Assembly: GCA_035221665.1 (NCBI GenBank)
Contig: CM069150.1
Span: forward strand, 37,200,001 to 37,264,000
Direction of reading: 5' to 3'
DNA from: Okamejei kenojei
Lineage: Eukaryota
DNA length: 64,000 nt
The position numbers and the translations under genes were made by a program. Below, piece after piece: positions 5,336-63,149 of the stretch (positions within the stretch are counted from its first letter, which is position 1; the number at the start of each line of letters is the position of its first letter). Under the pieces are notes generated by a model. That model did no database searches and was not told the DNA's origin. It was given only the letters and a program-made list of their open reading frames with translations.

Positions 5336-6169
5336 ATGGACATAACAATCTGCTCCAGCATTCCATTTGTATTTGGTTCAATAATGTTTGTGGAGGCTAG
5401 CATCATTTTGGAGGGAATTTTATATCAAATGTTTTCCAACAGCAAGGACATGGAGACATAAGGGACTACTTCTTACTGATAAGGCCTGATAGCATTACTA
5501 GTATTTCTATTTTTGTTTAATACTTGGGTCCCTTTTCAGCTTTTAATAAAGTGGATATTAAAAAGTAATGCTGGTTTACAAAAAAAGACACAAAGTGCCG
5601 GAGTAACTCAGCAGGTCGGGTAGCATCTCTGGAAGACATTGATAGATGATGTTTCAGATCCGGACGCTTCTTCAGATATGGTGTGGATTTACAGCTACTT
5701 GTGCCTAGAAAGCTCAGGTACAGGAAGGGTAAAGGTCCCAGGTCAGGTGCAGAAAATCTGTTTATTTATTGTTTGCACATCCACCAGCCTTCAACCCAGA
5801 TTTTCTTCCATTAATTTCTTCACAGCACCCCTCCCTCCCAACCTAATTTCCTTGGATAAATGTAGGTTAAAATGCTAGTAATCTCACCAGAAATTAGATT
5901 TAAAGGTATTATTTGAGTTACTAATATCCATTGGGAGATTGCCAGGGGCAAAGGAGGGGCCGTTAGATGTATGAAAATAGCAGTGGCGTGTGGCAGATAC
6001 TGGCAGCATGACACTTGCTTGAAGATCCAGCTAGCAGTTCAGGAAATATAGCTCCAGGCAACGTAAATTGGCAATAGCTCAAAGTTCTGATTGCCATCAC
6101 TGTTACAAAGGAACAGGTTCAAGGATCTGACTAGTAGAATAGAAAAAGGTTCCCTCGTCTGTTGAGTTA

Positions 6170-7346
6170 CAAATCAGTTTTATTGGCAAGAGAGAGAACA
6201 AAAACAATACTTGGCTTGGTATGTGTGGGGTCCGTTTTACAGCAGTACACCTCCCTCTGCCTCCGTCCGCGGCGCTGATCGTGACTCAGTCCGTCGGTGA
6301 ACCCCTCTTGTACATGAATACATCAGATTTATTGGCAAGAGAGAGAATAAAAACAATACTTGTTTTGGTATGTGCAGGGTCCGTTTTCTGCAGCACAACT
6401 CTTTCTCTCTCGCTCTCTCTCTCTCTCTCTCTCCCTCTGCATCCATCCGCGTGCTGATCGCGACTCAGCCAATCGGTGAACCCCTCTCGTACATAAACTA
6501 ACTTATGGCTTACTGGCGCCTGCCTTAATACAGGTAGGAAATCAGCCGTTGAAATAACCGCCGGTAAGTCCTGGTCAATAGCGCTGCTCCCAAATTCAAA
6601 CTATAACCAATGGTAGGGGACTGCATTTGGGAACAAAGCGCTCTCAGCCACAGACTGGCGCGTAAAGCAATACACAGCGCTACAGGGTTGACGCGAGACC
6701 AATACACTCCGCACTACAGACTTGGCGTGTAAAGGTAGTACACATAGCAATGTTACAACATTTTGAGATTATAAAAATCAAGTCTGCAATTTATCCCATC
6801 AGATAAAGCATAAAAATAAGTTTAATTTGACACCTAATTCACTTTCATATCTTCAGTATTAAAAAAGTTAAGGCCATTTTCATACTCGGAAATTAGCAAC
6901 TTGTTTCCTTTTGCTTTTCTAGTGACTTAACACAAAAGTTGTGATCGAGGACAGTCAAAAGCCCATAACCTTCTTAAAAATTAAGAGAACTGAAAGAAAT
7001 TTTCAGTTATTATTGATTGAAGTATTCTGAAACATATATGAAACAATCTTACTTGGATGACCTGAAATTAAAGCATATAATTAGTTAGTTACCCAATAGT
7101 AGCTAATTACAAAATTCAATTACTAGATCAAAACATCTATCCATTTCTTAAGAAAAAAAAATAAAAATATTTAAAGCCTAAGTGTCCAATTAACATTCAC
7201 ACAATATAACATGATTTTAAAATCTAATTGTCATTAATTTATAGGCCAAATTGAGGGAATTTAGTGTTTAATGCCCATAAATTAATGGGCATTTTAAGCT
7301 TGCGAGTGGGATTTTCTGGAACGCGATGGATTAGAAAGTTGCGGTT
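6170..7346. repeat. Unclassified interspersed repeat (DNA-transposon-like) with an internal ~150-bp tandem duplication (6170-6320 / 6321-6497)
   Basis: Two diverged copies of ATCAG.TTTATTGGCAAGAGAGAGAA...GGTGAACCCCTCT.GTACAT; CpG-rich part followed by an AT-rich part. Confidence 0.5.
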
Positions 7347-11650: not shown

Positions 11651-13431
11651 CCCAAGACCTGGAGAAATAAGAAATAAATTTCATAAGTTAATATACTTCT
11701 ATCAGATTACCCTTCAGCCTCTGACGCTTTTGAGAAAACAATCCAAGTTTGTCCAACCTCTCCTTATATTTCTCTTGCTGCATCCTTCGAATTGAGCACC
11801 TGCTGTATCACTGCCACACACCCCCTTTGCATATAGGACCTTGCTCTTGGCCTCCATTCTTGCACCACCGCCTGGGTATACAGTCGGTTGAACCAACGAG
11901 CTCTGTTCCTCCGTACCATTTTGCCCATCATTGTGTGTTCTTGATGTGTGGCTCTTCTGGCGAATGTGTCTCTGAGGGATTAGACTAGAGCGTCAAATTT
12001 CTGCAGTTGTGCCAATTAGGCGAGATCCATTCAGGAAGTTTGAGGGTCCCTTTTCAGTGTGTGATCATGGATGCTATTTCACTACATTTGTAAGGTGGGG
12101 GGGGGGGCAATTGCATTTCAGTACCAAAGACTATGACCAACAAATAAAGCTGTAATCTAATTACTAGACAACTTTGTCCAAGGAGAAATTGGAAACATTG
12201 AAGACAGTTAACGCAAGGCAGGAATAGCGATGTCTTGGCAAGAAGACAGCTTGCAATCTGAGCCAGAAAAAGAAGGACCTAAAATTGGAAGGAGAAATGC
12301 CATAGCAGAAATGTTTATTTTTAAATTGAATGATGCTTGAATTTCAGTGTGTTAGTTATTTATTCGTTTCTTGATGATTCATTATGTTAAATAATAATGT
12401 GGCAGATAAAAATCTGAATTCAAAATCAAGTTCCAGGTATTGAGATGAGATTCAATGAATATCATATTTATGTAATTTGCTGCAATTTTGTAGTTTTATA
12501 TTTTTGCGAGTCAGGCAGCATCCTGGAGAACCTGGATATGTGATGTTTTCGGTTGGGGTTCTTCTTCAGAAGAAGGGTCCCAGCCCGATATGACCCTCTG
12601 AGTTACTCCAGCACTTTGTGTCTTTTTATTGTAAAACTGCAGTTCTTTGTTTCTAGAGGTAAAAATCATCTACGGTGTGGCCAGAGGTATGATTGGGAGT
12701 TTGGGACATGTTGGTGCAGGAAGCAATGAATAATTGAGCAGTAATAAGTTTGGCTTAGGAAGGTGTTGATAGGAGATGGGGTGTAGGTGGTAATGTTTGG
12801 GAGTTGGCAGTCTGTGTGAGTCAGTCTGAGAAAGGTTCATGCGGATCAGTGGCAAATGTAATTGGAGGGCAGTGAGTTTTATTTTGACATGGCATTGGGT
12901 ATGAGAATGTAGCTAACAAGGAAATCTGGAGACTGAGAGCAACCACAAGAAATCTACTCAAAGGAGAATCCACCTGGAAGACCTTCAGTGCCTTAGATAC
13001 CCCAGCAACAGGCAAGGTCAAGCCCTCTCAAACTAACTTTCCTGATAAGGCTTTCTCTAATCTCAGGAGAAGGCTTACTTCAAAATGAATGGTTTACACA
13101 GTTTGCAGACGTCATATGCAAACAATAATTTTTGACATGTGGCACCAAAACATGGATTGCATGCCACTTGATCTCGCTGTGCATCAGTCTCCTTGTTCAG
13201 GCATGTCAAGCACATCCAAAACCCAAAGCAATTTTCTAGAATTGCACTACCGGTAGAATGCAAGGGAATATTGTACATTACTTTGAACTACTGCATTTTA
13301 CGTTATAATTAAAACATTTGTAAATAATACAGGATTTAACGTGCTAGAATATTGAAAACAGATGCTCAACATGGGAATTTGGTTTAAGTATCACTGAATA
13401 GTGTTTGGATTTTAACGATGGTTCTAACAAA

Positions 13432-15335
13432 TGTTTTAGAAGGAACTGCAGATGCTGGAAAATCGAAGGTAAACAAAAATGCTGGAGAAACTCAACGGGT
13501 GAGGCAGCATATATGGAGCGAAGGAAATGGGCAACGTTTCGGGTCGAGACCCTTCAGACTGATGTGAGGGTGGAGGGGGGGGCAGGAAGAAGAAAGGAAG
13601 AAGCGGAGACAGTGGGCTGAGGCAGAGCTGAGAAAGGGAGGGGAAAGCAGGGACTACCTGAAATTAGAGAAGTCAATGTTCATACCGCTGGGGTGTAAAC
13701 TGCCCAAGCGAAATATGGGATGCTGCTCCTCCAATTTATGGTGGTCCTCACTCTGGCCATGGAGGAGGCCCAGGACAGAAAGGTCGGATTCGGAATGGGA
13801 GGGGGAGTTGAAGTGCTGAGCCACCGGGAGATCAGGTAGGTTAATGCGAACCGAGCGGAGGTGTTGGGCGAAGTGATCGGCAAGCCTACGCTTGGTCTCA
13901 CCGATGTAGAGCAGCTGACACCTAGAGCAGCGGATTCAATAGATGAGGTTGGAAGAGGTGCAGGTGAATCTCTGCCTCACCTGGAAAGATTGCTTGGGTC
14001 CTTGAATGGAGTCAAGGGGGGAGGTAGAGCAACAAGTGCAGCATTTCCTGCGGTTGCAAGGGAAAATGCCAGGTGAGGGGGTGGTTTGGGTGGGAAGGGA
14101 AGAATTGACCAGGGAGTTACGGAGGGAGCGGTCTCTGCGGAAAGCAGACAGGGGAGGAGATGGGAAGATGTGGCCGGTGGTGGTATCCCGTTGGAGTTGG
14201 CGAAAATGTCGGAGGATTATTTGTTGTATGTGACGGCTGGTAGGGTGGACAAGGGGGACTCTGCCCTTGTTACGAGTGGGGGGATGGGTAGTTAGAGCAG
14301 AGTTACGGGGTATAGAAGAGACCCTGGTGAGAGCCTCATCTATAGTAGAAGAGGGGAACACCCGTTCCCTGAAGAATGAGGACATCTCTGATGCCCTGGT
14401 GTGGAACACCTCATCCTGGGTGCAGATGCGGCGTAGGCGGAATAATTGGGAGTCAGGGATGGAGTCCTTACAGGAAGCAGGGTGGGAAGAAGTGTAGTCC
14501 AGATAGCCATGGGAGTCAGTGGGTTTATATATTGGATGTCGGTCAGTAGTCTATCACCTGCGATGGAGGTCTAGAAATGGTAGGGAAATGGCGGAAATGG
14601 TCCAGGTGTATTTGAGTGCCGGATGGAAGTTAGTGGTGAAATGGATGGTCAGTGAGTTGTGTGTGGGTGCAGGAGGTAGCACCAATGCAGTATTCGATGT
14701 AGCAGAGGTAGAGTTTGGGGATAGGGCCCTGGTACGCCTTGAACAAAGATTGTTCGACGTACCCTACAAAGAGGCAGGCATAGCTAGGGCCCATGCGCAT
14801 GCCCATAGCTACGCCTTGTATTTGGAGGAAATAGGAGGAGTCAAACGAAAAGTTGTTAAGGGTAAGGACCAGTTCCGTTTGGCGGAGGAGAGTATCAGTG
14901 GACGGGGATTGGTTGGTTCTCCGGTTGAGGAAGAAACGGAGGGCTTTAAAAACATCCTGGTGGAGGATGGGGGTGTAGAGTGACTGGACATCCATGATGA
15001 AGATGAGGGAATGGGGGCCTAGAAAACGGAAGTCCTGGAATAGACGAAGAGCGTGTGATGTGTCTTGAACATAGGTAGGGAGGGATTTAGCCAGGGGGTA
15101 TAGGATGGAGTCGGGGTATGTGGAAATAAGTTTGGTAGGATACGAACAGGCAGAAACAATGGGTCTGCCAGGACAGTCAGGTTTGTGGATTTTGGGGAGA
15201 AGGTAAAATCGGGCCGTGCGGGGCTGGGGAACGATGAGGGTGGAGGCTTGGGAGGGCAGGGAGCCAGAAGTGATGAAGTCAGTGATAGTGCTAGAGATGG
15301 TGGCCTGGTGCTTGTCTGTGGGGTCATGGTTGGCG
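13432..15335 (-). mobile_element. Penelope-like retroelement (RT + GIY-YIG endonuclease + pseudo-LTR), 5'-truncated and frameshifted
   Basis: RTARFYLLPKIHKPDCPGRPIVS, QIQGVAMG.RMGPSYACLF, RFTCTSSNLIY followed by a YIGETKRR-type GIY-YIG region; terminal repeat at 13432-13562 shared with many short copies. Confidence 0.92.
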
Positions 15336-15809
15336 TGTGGCCTCAGCCTTGTAGAGATCAGCACGCCAGTCTAACTAAATAGTCAGCAGAATCTAAAAGT
15401 TAAGGAGATCAAAAGGAAGTGAAGCTACGTTAGTAAAGATGATGGACTAGTAGTTCATTGCGATAATCTAAAATTGGTTGCATGATGCAATTGGATTATT
15501 AATGTGCTGTTCACACATATTTGGAAATTTGTATCATTTATGACAAGCATGGGAATAAAGGTCACTTCAGAAGCGAGCAGTGCACATCTATAATTATTCT
15601 TGTAAAATTTATTTTTTGCATTTGCGGACTGCAAATGGCATGTTGTAGGAAGTCTAGTTTAAGAATAAGTGGTTACTCTTTCAACACAGAGACAAGGAGG
15701 AATTTCTTTGGAACGTCATGAAAGTGAAATTCTCTGTCACAGCAATGCATCTTTGAAGGTGTTCAGAGCTAAGAAATATTTTTAGATTGATTGATTGAAT
15801 TGACTGAAT

Positions 15810-16075
15810 GATACAGCACGATAACATGCCCTTCTGCCCACCGAGTCCAAGCTGACTGTCGATTCACACTAGTTCTATGTTATCCCACTTTCTCATCCAC
15901 CCCCAAAACACTAAGGGCAATTTACAGTGGCCAATTAACATATATATATAAAACATTAACATATAACATTTTGGGTCGGGCCCCGTGCTCGGCGTAGCAG
16001 TCTGGAGAAGGGTCCCGACCCGAAAAGCAAGATTCCAGCATCTGCAGCGCAGTTGCTTGTGTCTTCTTTGGTACA
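15810..16075. mobile_element. V-SINE 3' fragment (-) followed by a Penelope pLTR fragment
   Basis: CACACTAGTTCTATGTTATCCCACTTTC (SINE tail), then CTGGAGAAGGGTCCCGACCCGAAA...CAGCATCTGCAG. Confidence 0.65.
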
Positions 16076-30396: not shown

Positions 30397-30603
<207 letters not shown>

Positions 30604-31369
30604 TGAAAGAATTACTTTAAAATAATTATAAAAAATAATTGAAAATCTGCAGTTGCGCATTACAAAATATCTTGCATAATTACAGAATTTACGTTTGAGT
30701 AATGCTTCATGATTTAGAATTAATGTTTCGATTTATGACTGTTGCACATGCTTCAAAAACCAAAATAGTTGGTTTGCAGCGTTATCGTAGACAAGATTGT
30801 TTCCTTTTCCCCCAGGAATAATTAAATTGTAAGATGACAAACAGCACTCGTGCTAAGCTTGGTGGGAGATGAGATAAATCAACTTTAGATGTAATTTCGG
30901 ATGTAGTCCTGTGAAATAAAATTTGTCGTGTATTTCTATGAGGTTCAGGTAGGTGTTATTTAATTGAAGTATTTTAAATGATAAAATAATTTTACAGGGT
31001 TAATTAGAAATATTACTTCCTCTGGTATAATCTTAATCTTAATATGTTTTGGTATGATGGAGTCAAAGTAGAAAGCACTTAGCTAACAGATTGTGTTGAA
31101 ACTTTGGAATATATTCTGGAAAAATATATGGATGGTCAATAAAAAAAAATTAAGGCTACGATCTCATAAAGTTTTATTATGTACATATATTAAGAGATAT
31201 AGAACATAGTTGAGTAAATATACACTAACTGAATTATGGAGCTTATTAAGGAGCTAAATGGTGCTTGTGTTCCAGTTCACTCCAGTTTAACAAGTTGTGA
31301 ATAATTGTGAAATAAATGTTGATGTCCTTACAGAAAAAATATTTTTATTTCCTATAGGAATGATTCAGC

Positions 31370-32470
31370 GGACATTATGTGTAAAGGACTGTGGTTCATA
31401 CAGTATCAGGTGTGGAATTGGAGGCGATTTTATTAGCATGGATTGAGGATTGGTTTAGGGAGAAAAAGTAAGAATAAGCAGACTAAGTTTGAAATGGTAG
31501 CCTGCAATTACTGTCACAGGAAATAAAGTGACCTCTATTTTCAACTATTTTCAGTTTTAGATGAGTATAATAAATGGAATCCAACTGACGATACAAAGTA
31601 AACTATGGGGAGAATGAAAAGAGTTAGTAAACTAATAAAGACAGGTTAGGCATCTGGATACGAATGCGGCAAATGGAATGCACTGGGAAATATCAACTTA
31701 AATTGTTGAGGAAAAATAGAAAAACATGATAATTTTAAAAGATGACAATTCTGGAAATTGTTGTTTGTCAGAATGACGTGGTTGTGTTACACAAAGCACA
31801 AAGTTAACAAGTATAGAAAGAATTTAAGAAATTATGTGCTACTTTTATCGTAAAAGAATTGGAGTATATATGTAAGGTAGTCTTACTGTGATTAAATGGC
31901 GCCTTATGAAGGCACAGCTGGATTACTTGTGTAGTTTTGATTTCCTTGCCCAAGAAGAAATGCTCTTATTTTCGATGAGGTGTAAAATTTATTCACACAA
32001 CTAATTTTCTGGATTCAATCAGTTTTAGAAAGAGGAGAGATTAAGTGCACTGGGCCTTTTTCTTTGTTTGAGTTAAAATGAATGAGTGATGACCTCAATG
32101 AAATTAGATTATCTGCCGAAACGCTTGTCAGAATCGATCAGGGAGTTTGTTGTCCTTGTTGATGGAGCCAAAAGCCAAAGGCTTGGCCATTAGGACAGCG
32201 GTAAAGAGAAATGTTTCTTTAGAGTGTAATTGATGGAAATTCTCCATCCCAGATGGCTATGTATTTGATTTTTTGTGCATGCATGCTCACATGCATAAAC
32301 CAATCTACAATTTTGATGACTATTTTCAAGATAGGAACAAGTAGAGTTCTTGGAATCTGGGGATACATGATGATCGAATTAAGTGAAGATCTGCCAACAT
32401 CTTATTAAATGGAAAAGTAGTTTTGAAGTGTCAAATGCCCTGCTGTTCCTTTTTTCTATATTCTTGTATC
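31370..32470 (+). mobile_element. Old, heavily decayed CR1 ORF2/3' fragment
   Basis: Residual motifs in CR1 order (TTAGCATGGATTGAGGATTGGTT, GACGATACAAAG, GGCAAATGGAAT, CACAGCTGGATTAC, GGAAATTCTCCATCCCAGA). Confidence 0.6.
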
Positions 32471-33180
32471 CTAATTAAAAATGAATCCATGACTAATTTA
32501 GAGAGAGAACTTTCTATGATGATTTCTGCGACACTTGACATCTTACAATCTTGAAAATAATTAACTCACAACTGAATAAAAAACATAAGAATAAGACACA
32601 CAGGCAGGAATAGGCTCTCTGGCCTCTGAAACTTTATCCTCTATTCCCTAAGATTATGGTTAATTCAAAAATGTATCCCCATTCCTGTTCTATACCCGTG
32701 CCTCTTTACTCATTTTGTGTCCAAAAATAGGAGTCTCAGCTTCAACTGAAACAAGCAAGCGATTATAGTTCAATACCTACATGGATATGATAATTAGTCA
32801 TAGAGTCATGGAATGATACAGTGTGGAAACAGGCCCTTCGTCCCAACTTGCCCACACCGGCCAACATGTCCCAGCTATACTAGTTCTATCTGTCTGTGCT
32901 TGGACAATATCCCTCCAATCCTGTCCCATCCATGTACCTGTCTATCTGGTGAATTCTGATGAATAGATTTCTCCTTACCTCTAACCTGAAATGCCCTAAG
33001 ATTGTGATCTATGTTCCTAAGGTCTTCAACATAAGGAGGCAGCCTCTCAGTATCAACCCTCTTTATAATTCCCCCTTTTTTTTCTTACCACAGCCCCCTA
33101 CCCCCCACAATTTGTTGAATACTATTCCACACCAGACAGTTTTCCTAGTATTACACCCTGGAGGCCATGACTTATGATTC

Positions 33181-33309
33181 CGTCTGAAGAAGGGTCTCGA
33201 CCCGAAACGTCACCCATTCTTTCTAACTAGAGATGCTGCCTGTCCTGCTGAGTTACTCCAACATTTTGTGTCTATGGCGTAAATCAGCATCTGCAATTCC
33301 TTCTTACAC
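33181..33309 (+). mobile_element. Short Penelope pLTR-derived insertion carrying a hammerhead core
   Basis: Homologous to the reverse complement of 13432-13562. Confidence 0.85.
33182..33213 (+). ncRNA. Minimal type-I hammerhead ribozyme motif: GU-CUGAAGA-A-GGGUC-UC-GACCC-GAAA-CG-UC-AC
   Basis: Conserved core CUGANGA...GAAA...UH, 5-bp stem II, palindromic mini stem III (ACGU). Activity untested; stem I is only ~2 bp. Confidence 0.65.
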
Positions 33310-33563
33310 TAATGTTTGTTTGAAGATGATTTCAATATATGGGATATCATATCTGCAATTGATCCTGCGATGTCTTTACACACATACATCAAGCTCATGT
33401 ATGTTGATTGTATGTTCAAATTTGTAAGCTTATTACATCTTCAGTCATTGTCATTTCATTGGGAATCATTTCATATAAATCGACAATAAAAATGTTGGCT
33501 ACTTTGTACTTTTTCAAAGAAACAAAGACAAATAGAAATTATTTTGGTGCTTCAAGTAAAGTT

Positions 33564-33956
33564 CATAGAAACATAGAAAATAGGTGCAGGAGTAGGTCAT
33601 TCGGCCATTCGAGCCTGCACCGCCATTCAATATGATCATGGCTGATCATCCAACTCAGTATCCCGTACCTGCCTTCTCTCCATACCCTCTGATCCCTCTA
33701 GCCACAAGGGCCACATCCATCTCCCTTTTAAATATAGCCAATGAACTGGCCTCAACTACCTTCTGTGGCAGAGAATTCCACAGACTCACCACTCTATGTG
33801 TGAAAAATGTTTTTCTCATCTCGGTCCTAAAAGATTTCCCCCTTATCCTTAAACTGTGACCCCTTGCGCTGGACTTCCCCAACATCGGGAACAATCTTCC
33901 TGCATCTAGCCTGTCCAACCCCTTAAGAATTTTGTAAGTTTCTATAAGATCCCCCC
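33564..33956 (-). mobile_element. CR1 3' end with CATAGAAA repeat terminus
   Basis: DRLDAGRLFPMLGKSSARGHSLRIRG...LWNSLPQKVVEA (ORF 33655..33918). Confidence 0.92.
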
Positions 33957-34889
33957 GTGTGCAAGTTCAGCTCTTGCATCAAGTAATATTTGAGCCCAAG
34001 TTCTTTCTGGTCTCTTATGGTCTAGATACTTACTTTATAAACCTAGTGTGTTAATAGGAAGACATTTCCTTCATCTTCAAACCCTACTTCACCTTGATTC
34101 CAAAGACGTTGTGTTTAGTTTAATGGAGAGATACAGCATGGTCCACATCACCCACATGTTCACACTAGTCCTACATTATCCCACTTTCTCATTCTCTCCC
34201 TGCACCCTAGGGGCAAATCACAGTGGCTAATTATTCTACAATCATTTATTTATTCATTTATTTTAAATCTATGTTTATGCCGATATTTTCAGTTTTTCAA
34301 TGGAGTATAGGTTTAATAAAAGTAGAGTTGGAATATGTGGTTGGAAGTGTGCTATTGATAATTTTGAAACAGTTACTTGGAAAGGACCACAAAGACAATG
34401 TTTTTTGACAGCATGCATATTTTATTTGATATGTTCTAAATATGCATCTACATTTAACGACATGAAAGAAGGAAGATGGAGATACCTTAAAATTAATATC
34501 TTTCACCATGACAGCAGGTTTACAGTTCCTCTTATTTGAGTAAGAATTAGTTTTATTGAAACAGAGTTCAATTTAGTAATGGGACAGAAAATACAGCCAT
34601 TCTTATTTCTATATTACTCGGTGAATAACATTACAAATGATAAATTGATAACTAAAGCAGCATGGGTAAAATAAATAGCTCAAAATTATCTTATTAGGAC
34701 CCATATACATTAAAAATCTATTTCCATGAGTAAAATGGTGTGTAAAATGTATAGATAACATAATGCATCAATTTCTTATTGCTGAAGGCATTCGTGTAAA
34801 TAGAACATATGTCAGTTAATTCTTGATAGTTTCCTTTGCTTATTAATGCTTATGTTTACATTGAACTAATACATTTCTCCCCCTCCTAA

Positions 34890-35003
<114 letters not shown>

Positions 35004-35949: not shown

Positions 35950-36127
35950 ATTGGTAGAAGGAAGTATGGTGTGCGTTTGATTTGTTACTTCAGCCAGTAA
36001 TTGATGAAGTTCTAAGACTTGGCACATTCACTAACCAGGCCATTACCAGTGATGGGAATAATACATGTAAACCAGCATTCCTACTTTCTATGGTATCGCA
36101 TTTAACAAACTTGTCTAAAATTGGGCA

Positions 36128-36342
36128 AAAACAAACTACTGGAAGAACTCAGTGGGTCAGCCAGCACCTGCGAAGGAAAATGGACAGAAATCTTTTTGGG
36201 TTGGGACCCTTCTGCAGACTGAAGAAGATTCCTGACATGAAATACCATCTATCAATTTCCCAACATAAATGCTATATGGCCTGTTGAGTTCTTCCAATGG
36301 TTTTTTTCGCTTAAGATTCCAGCATCTGCAGCCTCTTGTGCC
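36128..36342. mobile_element. Palindromic Penelope pLTR-derived insertion, degraded
   Basis: CTGGAAGAACTCAG...CCCTTCTGCAGACTGAAGAAG...GAGTTCTTCCA...CAGCATCTGCAG. Confidence 0.7.
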
Positions 36343-41699: not shown

Positions 41700-42570
41700 G
41701 CCAGACGGGAGGCGCAGTGATAACCCAAATGCTGAATCAGGTTGTGTGCACATATGTGTGCTGAGGTCTGTGACTGCACGCTGAGCAGATGGAGGCGCCA
41801 GATGCCCTAGTCCCGCACCTGCGCAGTGGCGCGCCCCTGCCAGCAACCTAATGGGCGGTCGAGTGGGGTAGCGCCCCCTCCTGGACGTCCGGGGGAGCCT
41901 CGCCTGCACAATCCTCGCGAGAATAGAGCCGGGGGGGAGGGGGGAGGTGTGGTAGCTTATGCAACATAAACCATTCCTATTCTTCCACCAACACCACCCT
42001 TGTTAACCACTTATTGGGCAGAAATAAGACCATTAATAGTGGGCAACCACCTCTTAGTTTGGAAGAATTGCCCTGAAAGTAGTGCTGCTCAAACTCTGCT
42101 CTCTATTGGACAATAGTCCCCTATGCAAATAAGGCGCCCGCGTCACTTCCGTTCTTTCTCGGCCGCCATTTTGAGCAGCGGAGGCTCAGTGAATTATTGT
42201 CCGAGAGAGATTGAATTTTCGCCCCCCTCTTTTACCCCCCCTTCGCGGCCCAGCGCCTCAGAAAGTTATCGGTCCGGGGAGAAAAAAAAAGTTCGCTCGG
42301 TCGGGTTTGAGGCTTTGTTGTTTTTTTGGGGGGGAGGAAAGGGAAAATTGCGGGGAGCCGCTTGTCCGGCGGCGCTCAGTTGTCTTTTTTTTCCCCCTCC
42401 TCTCCTCCTCCTCCTCTTCTTTTGCCACTCACTAAACAGCTCCCTCTTTCAGTGAGCGCTGGAAGCTCGGCCGCTCGGGGGTTGATGTGAGGAGATTGAA
42501 GCGGCAGCAGGAGGAGGAGGCCCTTTGTTTGCGGCTCGCGTTCTTCTCACTGCTGCCGGCCCCGGCTCGC
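41700..42570 (+). promoter_or_regulatory. ADNP: CpG island / ADNP promoter: reverse CCAAT (42105-42109), octamer ATGCAAAT (42123-42130), composite CRE-half/ETS CGTCACTTCCG (42141-42151), YY1 GGCCGCCATTTTG (42161-42173), BANP/ZBTB33-like CCTCGCGAGA (41913-41922)
   Basis: The only non-repeat CpG-rich block in the window, with housekeeping-promoter motifs read directly. It lies upstream of the ADNP ATG exon. Confidence 0.85.
41869..41884 (-). promoter_or_regulatory. CTCF-type motif (CCAGGAGGGGGCGCTA on - strand)
   Basis: Close match to the CCASYAGRKGGCRS consensus. Confidence 0.55.
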
Positions 42571-59735: not shown

Positions 59736-60911
59736 TGTCCACAATAGGTATCTAATGGTCTGGCTATCCTCATCCTCTGTAACAGAGCATTCCAGAACTT
59801 CACTGCGCTTAAAATCTCCTTGCATTTTAATTTAACTTACCAGCCCTTTATTTTGTGGGGATGTCTCCATAGTTTGTGACTTCCACTTATGCAAATAATT
59901 AAATCCTCCCTGTCCAACCTCTTAGGATCTTTTTGAGGAAGGTCAACCAACATTCTTCTACACTCCAAGGAATGCAGACTCAATCGGTGCAGCTTATTGG
60001 TAACACAACTCCTTCATTTGTGCACTACAATAATTAAATCCCTGAACTTGACTCATTTGCAGGCGCTTGCCATTTAAATATTCTGCCTTTTGATTCCTCC
60101 TACCAATATTTATGGAAATATTAGATTGATATTGGAGGTTTTGTTGAATTTTGGGAAATCTATCAGAGATCTGTCATGTTGAGACATGGTGGAGATTTGA
60201 TCTAAGGGGCATTGGTAAAAGTATGGATTTAAGTTATTTCCTGGTGTGTTGCAATATGAGGTGCATGTGAATAATCCACTGTTTAACCCCCATCTCTTGT
60301 GGTTTGGTTTCAAAATTACTTGTATGGCTGTGCCACATCAACAAAATGACCATTCTTCATGCATGAATCCAGACACTGAATTCTACCAGGTTTATTTGAG
60401 TTCACTGCACACCATCAAATCCTGGAACAGTTAAACATCTTGAGATATTGAATCGTTTACTAATGTCTTAGTGGCCACAAACCAGAATTAAATGTATTTT
60501 TAATTTCTTATAATTTAACAGTTGAGAGGTCTGAAAATAAATGAAATCTTGAACTTCGTTTTTCTTTCTTCAATTATTATTATTTTCAGTCAGACAACTT
60601 TCTTACAAGGAGCTTCAGATGATGGAATCTTGCATAGAACACAAAGTACTGGAGTTGCTCAATAGGTCGGGCAGCATCTCTGGAGGACGTGAGTAGGCGG
60701 CATTCCAAGATGTCACCTATCCATGTCCCACAGACATGTTGCCTGATCTGCTGGGTTGGTTATTCCAGCACTTTGAATTCTCCCCAAAAATTTTATATAA
60801 ATACATACCTGTTGTGAGTGCTCCACAGAGCATCGTGCCTAATAAAGCCTAAGATGATTCATTTGATGTGATATTCCCTTAGTTTGTGGATGTTTCACAG
60901 TCCTGCTACTA

Positions 60912-61179: not shown

Positions 61180-62340
61180 GTTTGTTTCAGGCACCCACTA
61201 CACCCTGAAAAATAAAATAGAAAATGTGCCCTGCACATCTCCTTTAAATTTTGCCTGTCTCGCTTTAAAGTTTGACATTTCCAGGGGGAAATGGGTATAA
61301 TTGTCTACCCTATTTATGCCTCTCACATTTTGTTACATACCTATGTGTCGGGTGTCCCCTGGAAAATAATGATTCTCCAGAGAAAATAATCCAAGCTTGT
61401 CCAACCTTTTCTAGCTAATACCCTCTAATCACAGCAGCATCCCTGTAAATCTGTTCTGTGTCCTTGACAAAGCCTTCATTTCCTAGTAATGGACCAATCA
61501 GAACTGCGCACGATATTGCAAATGCGGCCTAACCAGACCCCTATCAAGCTGCACATACTTATGCCCTGACTGATGAAGTTGAGCAAACCATATGCCGCCT
61601 TTATCCACGTGTTGCTACATTCAGGACACAATTGAACCCCAAGATTCCTCTGTATAACAATGCAGTTAAGGCTCTTGCCATTAATTATATATTTTCCCCA
61701 TACATTTGACCCCCCAAAATGCTACACCATGTGCTCAGTCGGATTGGTGTAGCTTTTTCTCTGTACATTTGCTTTTTCTCTGTACATTATTATAGATGAT
61801 CTTATAAGGCAATGAATACTTTGGCAGCCTTCCTCACTTCACTGGTTTTGGTGTAATCTGCAAACATACTAACCAATCCATTTACATTAATAGGTAGACA
61901 AAAGTGCTGGAGAAACTCAGCGGGTGAGGCAGCATCTATGGAGCGAAGGAAATGGGAAACGTTTCAAGCCAAAATCTTTCTTCAGACTGGAAGAAGGGTT
62001 TCAGCCCTAAATGTTGCCTAATTCCTACGCTCCATAGATGCTGCCTCATCTGCTGAGTTTCTCCAGCACTTTTGTCTACCTTTGATTTTCCAGCATCTGC
62101 AGTTCCGTCTTAAACACTTACATTAATATCCTAGTTGTTTGTATGTTTTTCAGAAACACCATAGCCACAGCACATATATACCTGCGTAATTCCGCTGGTC
62201 TCAGACTTCCAGCCAGAATAACCTTTCCACCACAACCCTCTGTCCTCTGAGTGAGTCAGTTCTGAATCCAAATGACCAAGTCACAATGGGTCTTAATCTT
62301 CTGGATCAGATCCCCTTGAGAGACTTCATCGGTCATTTCC
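61180..62340 (-). mobile_element. Degraded CR1 hosting a younger pLTR insertion
   Basis: CAGCATCCCTGTAAATC...CAGAACTGCGCACGATATTGCAAATGCGGCCTAACC...GTGTAATCTGCAAAC. Confidence 0.7.
61893..62117. mobile_element. Inverted (head-to-head) Penelope pLTR pair plus 37-nt tail, with an 11-bp TSD
   Basis: GGTAGACAAAAGTGCTGGAGAAACTCAGC...GCTGAGTTTCTCCAGCACTTTTGTCTACC (61893-62080); tail 62081-62117; TSD TTACATTAATA at 61882-61892 and 62118-62128. Confidence 0.9.
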
Positions 62341-62773: not shown

Positions 62774-62881
62774 ATGTACCAGCTTCCTGTTAACAACCTT
62801 GCAAATCTAAGAAAAGCTCGTAAAACGGTGAAAAAAATCCTTACTGATATTGGGTTAGATTATTGTAAAGACCATATCGAG
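62774..62881 (+). CDS. ADNP: ADNP first coding exon (exon 62769-62881; 5 nt UTR + 108 nt CDS): [36 protein letters not shown]
   Basis: Matches human ADNP N-terminus [36 protein letters not shown]. ttgaacAG acceptor, GAG|GTAAGT donor. Adjacency to DPM1 favours ADNP over ADNP2. Confidence 0.95.
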
Positions 62882-63149
62882 GTAAGTAGAATGCATTTTG
62901 GAAGGGGTTGAAATTATATCACATCCTAATTGTACCAGGATTTTGTTAGCATTTCAAAATGAACATAGCAAGTTAAGGCAATTATTACATTTATTATATG
63001 ATGGTCCAGAATTTGCTGTTCTTAAGTTGTAGAAATTGCAACTAGGGAGATGTTATTCTGATGTGATAAAAGGATGCTCTTCTGGATGACAAAGTATTAC
63101 AGAGCTTTACTAAATTTATTCCATAATGCCACGAGTGCTGGTTGGATCT

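Follow-up and report, generated by a model that had tools for sequence, protein, structure and literature searches.

A minimal type I hammerhead motif of Penelope-like origin in the last intron of a gene read as DPM1

Introduction

Sense hammerhead ribozymes in the introns of housekeeping genes are represented in amniotes by HH9 and HH10, each of which is a complete monomeric ribozyme, present as a single copy and strongly conserved. The locus described here, at 33182-33213 of a 64-kb stretch of Okamejei kenojei DNA (the whole stretch that was analysed, hereafter the window), resembles them as a sense hammerhead in a housekeeping-gene intron. In contrast to HH9 and HH10, this copy, located in a gene read as DPM1, is one of many thousands of decaying copies and has no stem III.

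Closer relatives are the minimal hammerheads of metazoan Penelope-like elements (PLEs). As presented in the text of PMC4209133, these share with the motif in DPM1 the type I layout, the core boxes, the extra base between positions 9 and 10.1 and the G10.1-C11.1 pair. The likeness extends to a stem III that consists only of the palindromic 15.2-16.2, to the location in terminal repeats and to the occurrence mostly as single dispersed copies (PMC4209133). The helices differ in length: stem I has 2 bp here, in comparison with 4-5 bp in Schistosoma and 2 bp in Drosophila virilis, and stem II has 4 bp, in comparison with 7-8 bp in Schistosoma (PMC4209133). According to the same text, the Schistosoma minimal hammerhead showed no cleavage as a monomer and was weak as a dimer (PMC4209133). 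Cartilaginous fishes are unnamed in most of the text of that paper, and a literature search found no paper on this PLE family in cartilaginous fishes, although the figures or supplement of PMC4209133 may include an example. The motif class was already published in 2014, and the copy in DPM1 is another member of a decayed family.

Craig and others (2021) described the Neptune EN+ PLEs, in which, as in the decayed element of our window, RT is followed by a C-terminal GIY-YIG domain with a C-x4-C-x2-C linker between them (PMC8557442). Strong 5' truncation and inverted truncated copies joined at the 5' end are also common to both (PMC8557442). The comparison differs in that the assignment made here uses the linker motif alone, without a tree, and that Nematis also has a linker motif (PMC8557442).

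Another example is the Poseidon element PAc of Anolis carolinensis, for which Frangieh and others (2024) reported a terminal-repeat hammerhead near the ORF end and copies that keep the motif uncut, as is the case here (PMC11167929). In that account cleavage by the hammerhead depends on the protein of the element, and the cut site coincided with neither the start nor the end of any RNA-seq read (PMC11167929). PAc differs in belonging to another clade and in having been assayed for activity; its ORF starts inside the ribozyme (PMC11167929). Non-LTR retrozymes are, like the repeat studied here, non-coding, hammerhead-bearing derivatives of Penelope terminal repeats; as reported, they include one chondrichthyan, and more than 40% of the Xenopus copies are intronic (bioRxiv 10.64898/2026.07.22.740005). 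Retrozymes are described as tandem arrays with at least two intact motifs, whereas the 33182 copy is solitary (bioRxiv 10.64898/2026.07.22.740005). With regard to ribozymes within introns, PMC2995048 reports that introns cut by slow hammerheads are still spliced (Dye 2006; Fong 2009) and that a fast HDV ribozyme in an intron blocked splicing (Fong 2009).

Host gene and intron

Eight exons of 100, 34, 77, 26, 96, 69, 115 and 105 nt were found on the + strand, all preceded by AG and the first seven followed by GT; exon 1 was not found within the 64-kb window. Glycos_transf_2 (Pfam) scored above cut-off in two of the five exons scanned, and searches of the PDB with the two final exons were uninformative. 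The exon sizes and motifs fit DPM1 exons 2-9, the 115-nt exon being presumably exon 8 and the 105-nt exon presumably exon 9, and 30601-34898 is taken to be "intron 8" by human DPM1 numbering. Downstream of this GT2 gene, an exon at ~62780-62890 (+) reads like the first coding exon of ADNP, the usual neighbour of DPM1. The host gene is read as DPM1 on the basis of its motifs, the sizes of its exons and the neighbouring ADNP-like exon.

30486..30600 (+), upstream exon, 115 nt
30601..34898 (+), host intron, 4,298 nt, GT..AG, the last before the stop-codon exon
34899..35003 (+), last coding exon to TGA, 105 nt

The first-pass annotation had placed the motif in sense orientation inside the last DPM1 intron, in agreement with an intron at 30601-34898 on the + strand. 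More high-copy repeats are present in this intron at 32815-32900, 33564-33956 and 34158-34241, and they include an antisense LINE-like RT C-terminal fragment (ORF 33655-33966, - strand). A CpG-rich stretch lies further along the window, at 42001-42500.

The hammerhead motif

The layout of the motif was obtained by a descriptor search and by reading of the sequence.

33182..33213 (+), minimal type I hammerhead motif
33182-33183 paired with 33212-33213, stem I (GU/AC, 2 bp)
33184-33190, core box CUGAAGA, followed by the extra A at 33191
33192-33195 paired with 33200-33203, stem II, 4 bp, with the loop CUCG (4 nt)
33204-33207, GAAA box, with the palindrome ACGU at 33207-33210 and the predicted cut after C33211

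The core boxes CUGANGA, GAAA and UH are all present, and in hammerhead numbering C3 corresponds to 33184, G8 to 33189, A9 to 33190, G12 to 33204, A15.1 to 33207, U16.1 to 33210 and C17 to 33211. The extra base between positions 9 and 10.1 is A33191, the G10.1-C11.1 pair is G33192-C33203, and stem III is reduced to the palindrome at 15.2-16.2. The letters and coordinates given in the first-pass annotation, including those of G12 (33204) and of the predicted cut (after C33211), are correct, and the sequence agrees with the catalytic core that it had described, with an extra A after A9, ACGU replacing stem III and a GU/AC stem I. Its 5-bp stem II has to be shortened to 4 bp around CUCG, because the fifth pair would leave a 2-nt hairpin loop and such a loop requires at least 3 nt. 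With 2 bp, stem I is short of the 4-5 bp of the usual metazoan PLE minimal hammerheads, which makes the motif a variant; its membership is kept because a 2-bp helix I was published for D. virilis (PMC4209133).

The descriptor, applied to both strands of the 64 kb, required the core boxes together with a stem II of 4 bp and a stem I of 2 bp, the palindrome being optional. The full descriptor gave a single match, 33182-33213, and matched anything in 3 of 300 dinucleotide shuffles. The bare pattern CTGANGA..GAAA was weakly above chance, with 10 matches against a shuffle mean of 5.49 (3 of 100 shuffles reach 10). An Rfam check, which had been proposed earlier for this locus, gave no match to the hammerhead models at E<=5 over the whole window or at E<=10 over 33100-33330. 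The motif falls outside the canonical three-helix-in-cis form of Rfam: its stem III is unable to close in cis, and a partner copy is needed.

Penelope-like parentage of the repeat

The hammerhead is the 5' end of a ~130-nt stub, which is a dispersed repeat. A copy of this repeat at 13555 (-) lies downstream of the stop of a decayed RT and GIY-YIG ORF.

33178..33309 (+), whole insertion, a 5'-truncated pseudo-LTR stub of a Penelope-like element, ~130 nt with approximate ends, from blastn, nhmmer and the family boundary in contigs
13652..15370 (-), decayed 5'-truncated Penelope-like ORF with RT, C-x4-C-x2-C linker and GIY-YIG, carrying stops and frameshifts
13426..13651 (-), 3' UTR and pseudo-LTR of the decayed element, with the same hammerhead, carrying a 3-nt core deletion, ~95 nt past the stop

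By using the RT and GIY-YIG protein P0036, in which both Pfam domains score above cut-off, tblastn covered 15361-13678 (-), corresponding to P0036 residues 325-891 of 893. Pfam searches on five window ORFs at E<=0.01 matched none of them, and at E<=0.5 two of three window pieces showed weak similarity to RVT_1 and GIY-YIG, short of the cut-off. The nearest named RT relatives of the decayed ORF are from Mobula and Chiloscyllium, with 66-69% identity, which points to a host among the cartilaginous fishes. Between RT and GIY-YIG, the 14550-13936 frame contains a C-x4-C-x2-C that falls within the CX2-5CxxC definition given for Neptune (PMC8557442). This linker points to a putative membership of the Neptune clade, the placement being made by the linker motif alone; Nematis has a linker motif too. 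A real minimal type I hammerhead of Penelope-like origin at 33182-33213 is supported.

No target-site duplication was evident by eye at the 33178-33309 insertion. The decayed element (13426-15370, -) lies in antisense orientation in the intron that precedes the earliest of the exons found.

Copies in the window and decay of the family

The stub repeat gave 21 profile matches in 64 kb. Among them the 33182 copy alone is complete, with its 12 core positions, the four pairs of stem II, the two of stem I and the palindrome all retained, which upholds its earlier description as the best-preserved copy in the window. Two others, at 5676 (-) and 61986 (-), retain the core letters and have lost a helix. 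The other sense copies, at 7343, 8275, 12566 and 16001 (upstream, within the gene span) and at 36219 (downstream), are all core-defective, so that the nearest sense copies, 17 kb upstream and 3 kb downstream, are both defective. The gene span holds five sense and five antisense stub copies. One intact copy is expected somewhere among 21 decaying ones.

The family is very abundant in the relatives, with 58,299-69,647 contigs on 151 nt in each of the runs X19, X22 and X23 (read as DNA); the summed contig depth, 10^5 to 10^6 times that of a single copy, is a sign of abundance and not a copy number. At 33182-33219 the copy equals the family majority, and no other letter reaches a majority. Its 3' part is visibly unlike the family (loose-end consensus, compared by eye). 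At 33220 this copy carries T, a minority allele, the family having C in 84-94% of depth.

Sites varying by at least 10% in at least one run are 33203, 33204, 33208, 33209, 33212, 33215 and 33220; within 33182-33219, such variation is confined to four CpG sites, A33212 and C33215. The catalytic G33204 (G12) is replaced by A at 13.5-14.3% of depth in each of the four runs, and the other listed CpG sites change in 5.6-14.9% of depth. Both G12 (33203-33204) and the palindrome (33208-33209) lie in CpGs, and these are the fastest-decaying core sites. The rate at G33204 is what would be expected from neutral CpG decay. Most core letters are well kept at the family level, which counts against reading the copy as an inert passenger, although the alignment favours conserved copies when core variation is counted. 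A comparison of core positions across genomic copies, put forward earlier as a check on the ribozyme, leans against activity, G12 being among the most often changed sites. With regard to covariation in the helices, 151 of 500 shuffles reach the score (13 of the 21 window copies aligned, two rows being out of register at stem I).

Where the copies begin

Of the 21 window matches, 16 have their start within model positions 1-8 and not one has it within 25-35, and the ORF-linked copy alone among the window copies carries the upstream UTR. Among the loose ends listed, the top ones are at 33182-33185, a peak artificially sharpened by the window's C33181 where the family has A, and the sequence upstream is mixed (agreement 0.32-0.38). 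Family copies start at the ribozyme's 5' edge, beside TCAGTC, rather than at the cut site, which fits a report of uncut RNA as the insertion template. The TCAGTC a few bases before the ribozyme core fits the initiator consensus. An internal promoter has been described for the Penelope of D. virilis, as reported in PMC2377424. It could be imagined that the stubs are SINE-like units starting at the initiator-like TCAGTC, with the ribozyme kept hairpin-shut until the element's protein binds, which would make tens of thousands or more intronic copies, the one in DPM1 among them, latent protein-triggered cut sites in host pre-mRNAs at any time of element expression; we consider this highly unlikely.

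Five head-to-head inverted stub pairs are present in the window, at 12506-12640, 15943-16030, 36122-36325, 60619-60781 and 61887-62096. In three of these, at 12.6, 36.2 and 62.0 kb, the junction falls on the 5' edge of the ribozyme or next to it, and in two of the three it runs through the near-palindrome CAG(T/A)CTG. The 62-kb pair gives spurious matches to miRNA precursors in Rfam.

Age of the insertion

Four runs from relatives were searched, all of them as contigs, which cannot show RNA ends or levels. Contigs leading from the unique upstream flank into the core, reaching 33204-33208, were present in all four runs, and contigs tying the 3' part of the repeat to the downstream flank in three of the four. 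The 5' junction common to the four relatives indicates that the insertion predates their split. Each relative has one unplaced difference in 33100-33208, hence at most one in the core. At an intron divergence of 2-4%, a stretch of 24 nt would be expected to show 0-1 differences in 72-91% of cases. As judged from these sequences, the conservation among the four relatives appears to be no more than the neutral expectation, a divergence of 2-4% giving no power to tell selection from neutrality.

In run X1, a contig spans the 5' junction of the insertion. Another contig of 1,389 nt first matches at 34897, with a depth figure of 175.4 equal to that of the upstream exon, and there is no cover at 30610-30840. 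The 1,389-nt contig is read as spliced mRNA from an insertion-bearing organism, the joint being suggested by the start of the match and the equal depth; the run label is "RNA? (probably DNA)", and the exon-matched contig is the single basis of the RNA reading.

Head-to-tail joints of a ~94-nt unit (33275->33182) and short tandem core doubles (33211->33182) occur elsewhere in the relatives' genomes. Such head-to-tail or tandem units are candidates for active dimers, rather than the copy in DPM1.

Predicted folding and competence for cleavage

The folding of the transcript was predicted with ViennaRNA and nearest-neighbour energies, which take no account of tertiary contacts within the hammerhead, of Mg2+ or of proteins.

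33186..33222 (+), predicted rival inactive hairpin, 33186-33195 paired with 33212-33222 and A33216 bulged (ViennaRNA)

This hairpin engages G5, A6, G8, A9 and the 5' strand of stem II. In three context sizes its ViennaRNA probability is 0.999, with stem II at <=0.001; forcing stem II costs 5.05 kcal/mol, and forcing stems I and II with an open core costs 8.56 kcal/mol. As the chain is lengthened step by step, the probability of stem II rises to at most 0.60 and has dropped under 0.02 when 33219 is reached. T33220 adds one pair to the rival hairpin. With regard to pairing in trans, the interface would consist of the palindrome ACGU/ACGU, which gives -1.7 kcal/mol, and the 2 bp of stem I, and the active half-dimer of 41-nt pieces is calculated at -9.5 kcal/mol, in comparison with -7.8 kcal/mol for each of the two monomer ensembles (nearest-neighbour).

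A longer stem I formed from the flanks was considered and rejected, as the best upstream/downstream duplex leaves the core unclosed. The rival hairpin as a conserved family switch was also rejected: no two-sided change was seen in 13 copies, and 483 of 500 shuffles score as high. In eight other natural copies the probability of the hairpin ranges from 0 to 0.75, and this spread together with the low covariation leaves selection on the hairpin unsupported.

By these models, intron cutting by the 33182 copy would be unlikely. The likely cutting of the pre-mRNA suggested in the first-pass annotation is opposed by the predicted rival hairpin, the 2-bp stem I, the defective sense copies, the published inactivity of Penelope hammerheads as monomers and the tolerance of introns to slow cuts.

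Competing explanations

We regard it as very probable that the motif is an inert passenger, a Penelope terminal-repeat hammerhead present as a 5'-truncated stub that is spliced out and folded inactive. The sequence of events would begin with a family terminal repeat that, as the window element shows, follows the RT and GIY-YIG ORF and starts with the minimal hammerhead. From known Penelope biology, reverse transcription by the Penelope-like protein would have brought no more than the final ~130 nt of its RNA into the intron, at a time that, as the 5' junction shows, precedes the split of the four relatives. The copy would be intact by luck and age, as the best of 21 decaying copies, and not by selection. 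On transcription, stem II is predicted to form briefly and to be displaced once 33215-33222 emerge, and the catalytic fold would not be reached unless a partner copy, or the protein of the element, were present; the flanking exons would splice normally and the stub would leave with the intron. Against this passenger status, a core equal to the family majority next to a differing 3' part, with at most one difference in the relatives, would fit selection, but the copy was picked for its intactness, and 0-1 differences are expected that often. A fortuitous resemblance to the core, without descent from any ribozyme, would agree with a bare pattern found 5.49 times per shuffle, with the silence of the Rfam hammerhead models and with the lack of significant covariation in the window copies. 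It is made very unlikely by the link to the Penelope-like ORF, in whose terminal repeat the motif lies, and is further opposed by a full descriptor found in just 3 of 300 shuffles and by the extra base after A9, the G10.1-C11.1 pair and the palindrome, which are PLE family traits in the text of PMC4209133; its probability is close to nil.

Two other explanations grant the motif some activity. One is low-rate cleavage of a copy that is silent alone and is refolded when the element's protein, or a partner on another transcript, is at hand, as might happen in germ cells, the output of DPM1 being hardly or not at all affected. This would be in keeping with the complete core, with the great abundance of the family, also in run X1, and with the protein dependence reported for the Anolis Poseidon hammerhead (PMC11167929). 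In the same report, however, the first 172 nt of the ORF are the proposed binding site of the protein, a site that the ~130-nt stub may lack, and reads at the cut site were absent from the Anolis RNA-seq (PMC11167929). The single ORF seen in the window is moreover decayed, and the minority allele T33220 strengthens the inactive hairpin by one pair, so that we find such conditional cutting unlikely. An exapted regulator, cutting the last intron before splicing and tuning DPM1 output, is extremely unlikely. Its sense orientation, intact core and 5' junction common to four relatives would suit this role, as would the ability of a fast intronic ribozyme to block splicing (Fong 2009, as reported in PMC2995048), but it is opposed by the predicted misfolding, the 2-bp stem I and the want of a competent partner. 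It is equally opposed by the tolerance of introns to slow hammerhead cuts in that source (PMC2995048), by a conservation in the relatives within the neutral expectation and by the balance of five sense and five antisense copies in the gene span.

Significance of the copy and of the family

On the inert-passenger explanation, which is the best reading, the DPM1 copy matters little and is likely harmless debris. The family is more useful than the copy, as it furnishes a large natural data set on the role of Penelope hammerheads. Were this copy to cleave the final DPM1 intron, it would represent a transposon ribozyme acting on a housekeeping transcript, that of dolichol-phosphate-mannose synthase.

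Other repeats in the window

Two diverged direct copies of a ~170-nt unit, with a CT run between them, are located at 6216-6500. A long inverted repeat (MITE-like hairpin) at 571-702 gives weak matches to Rfam miRNA models.
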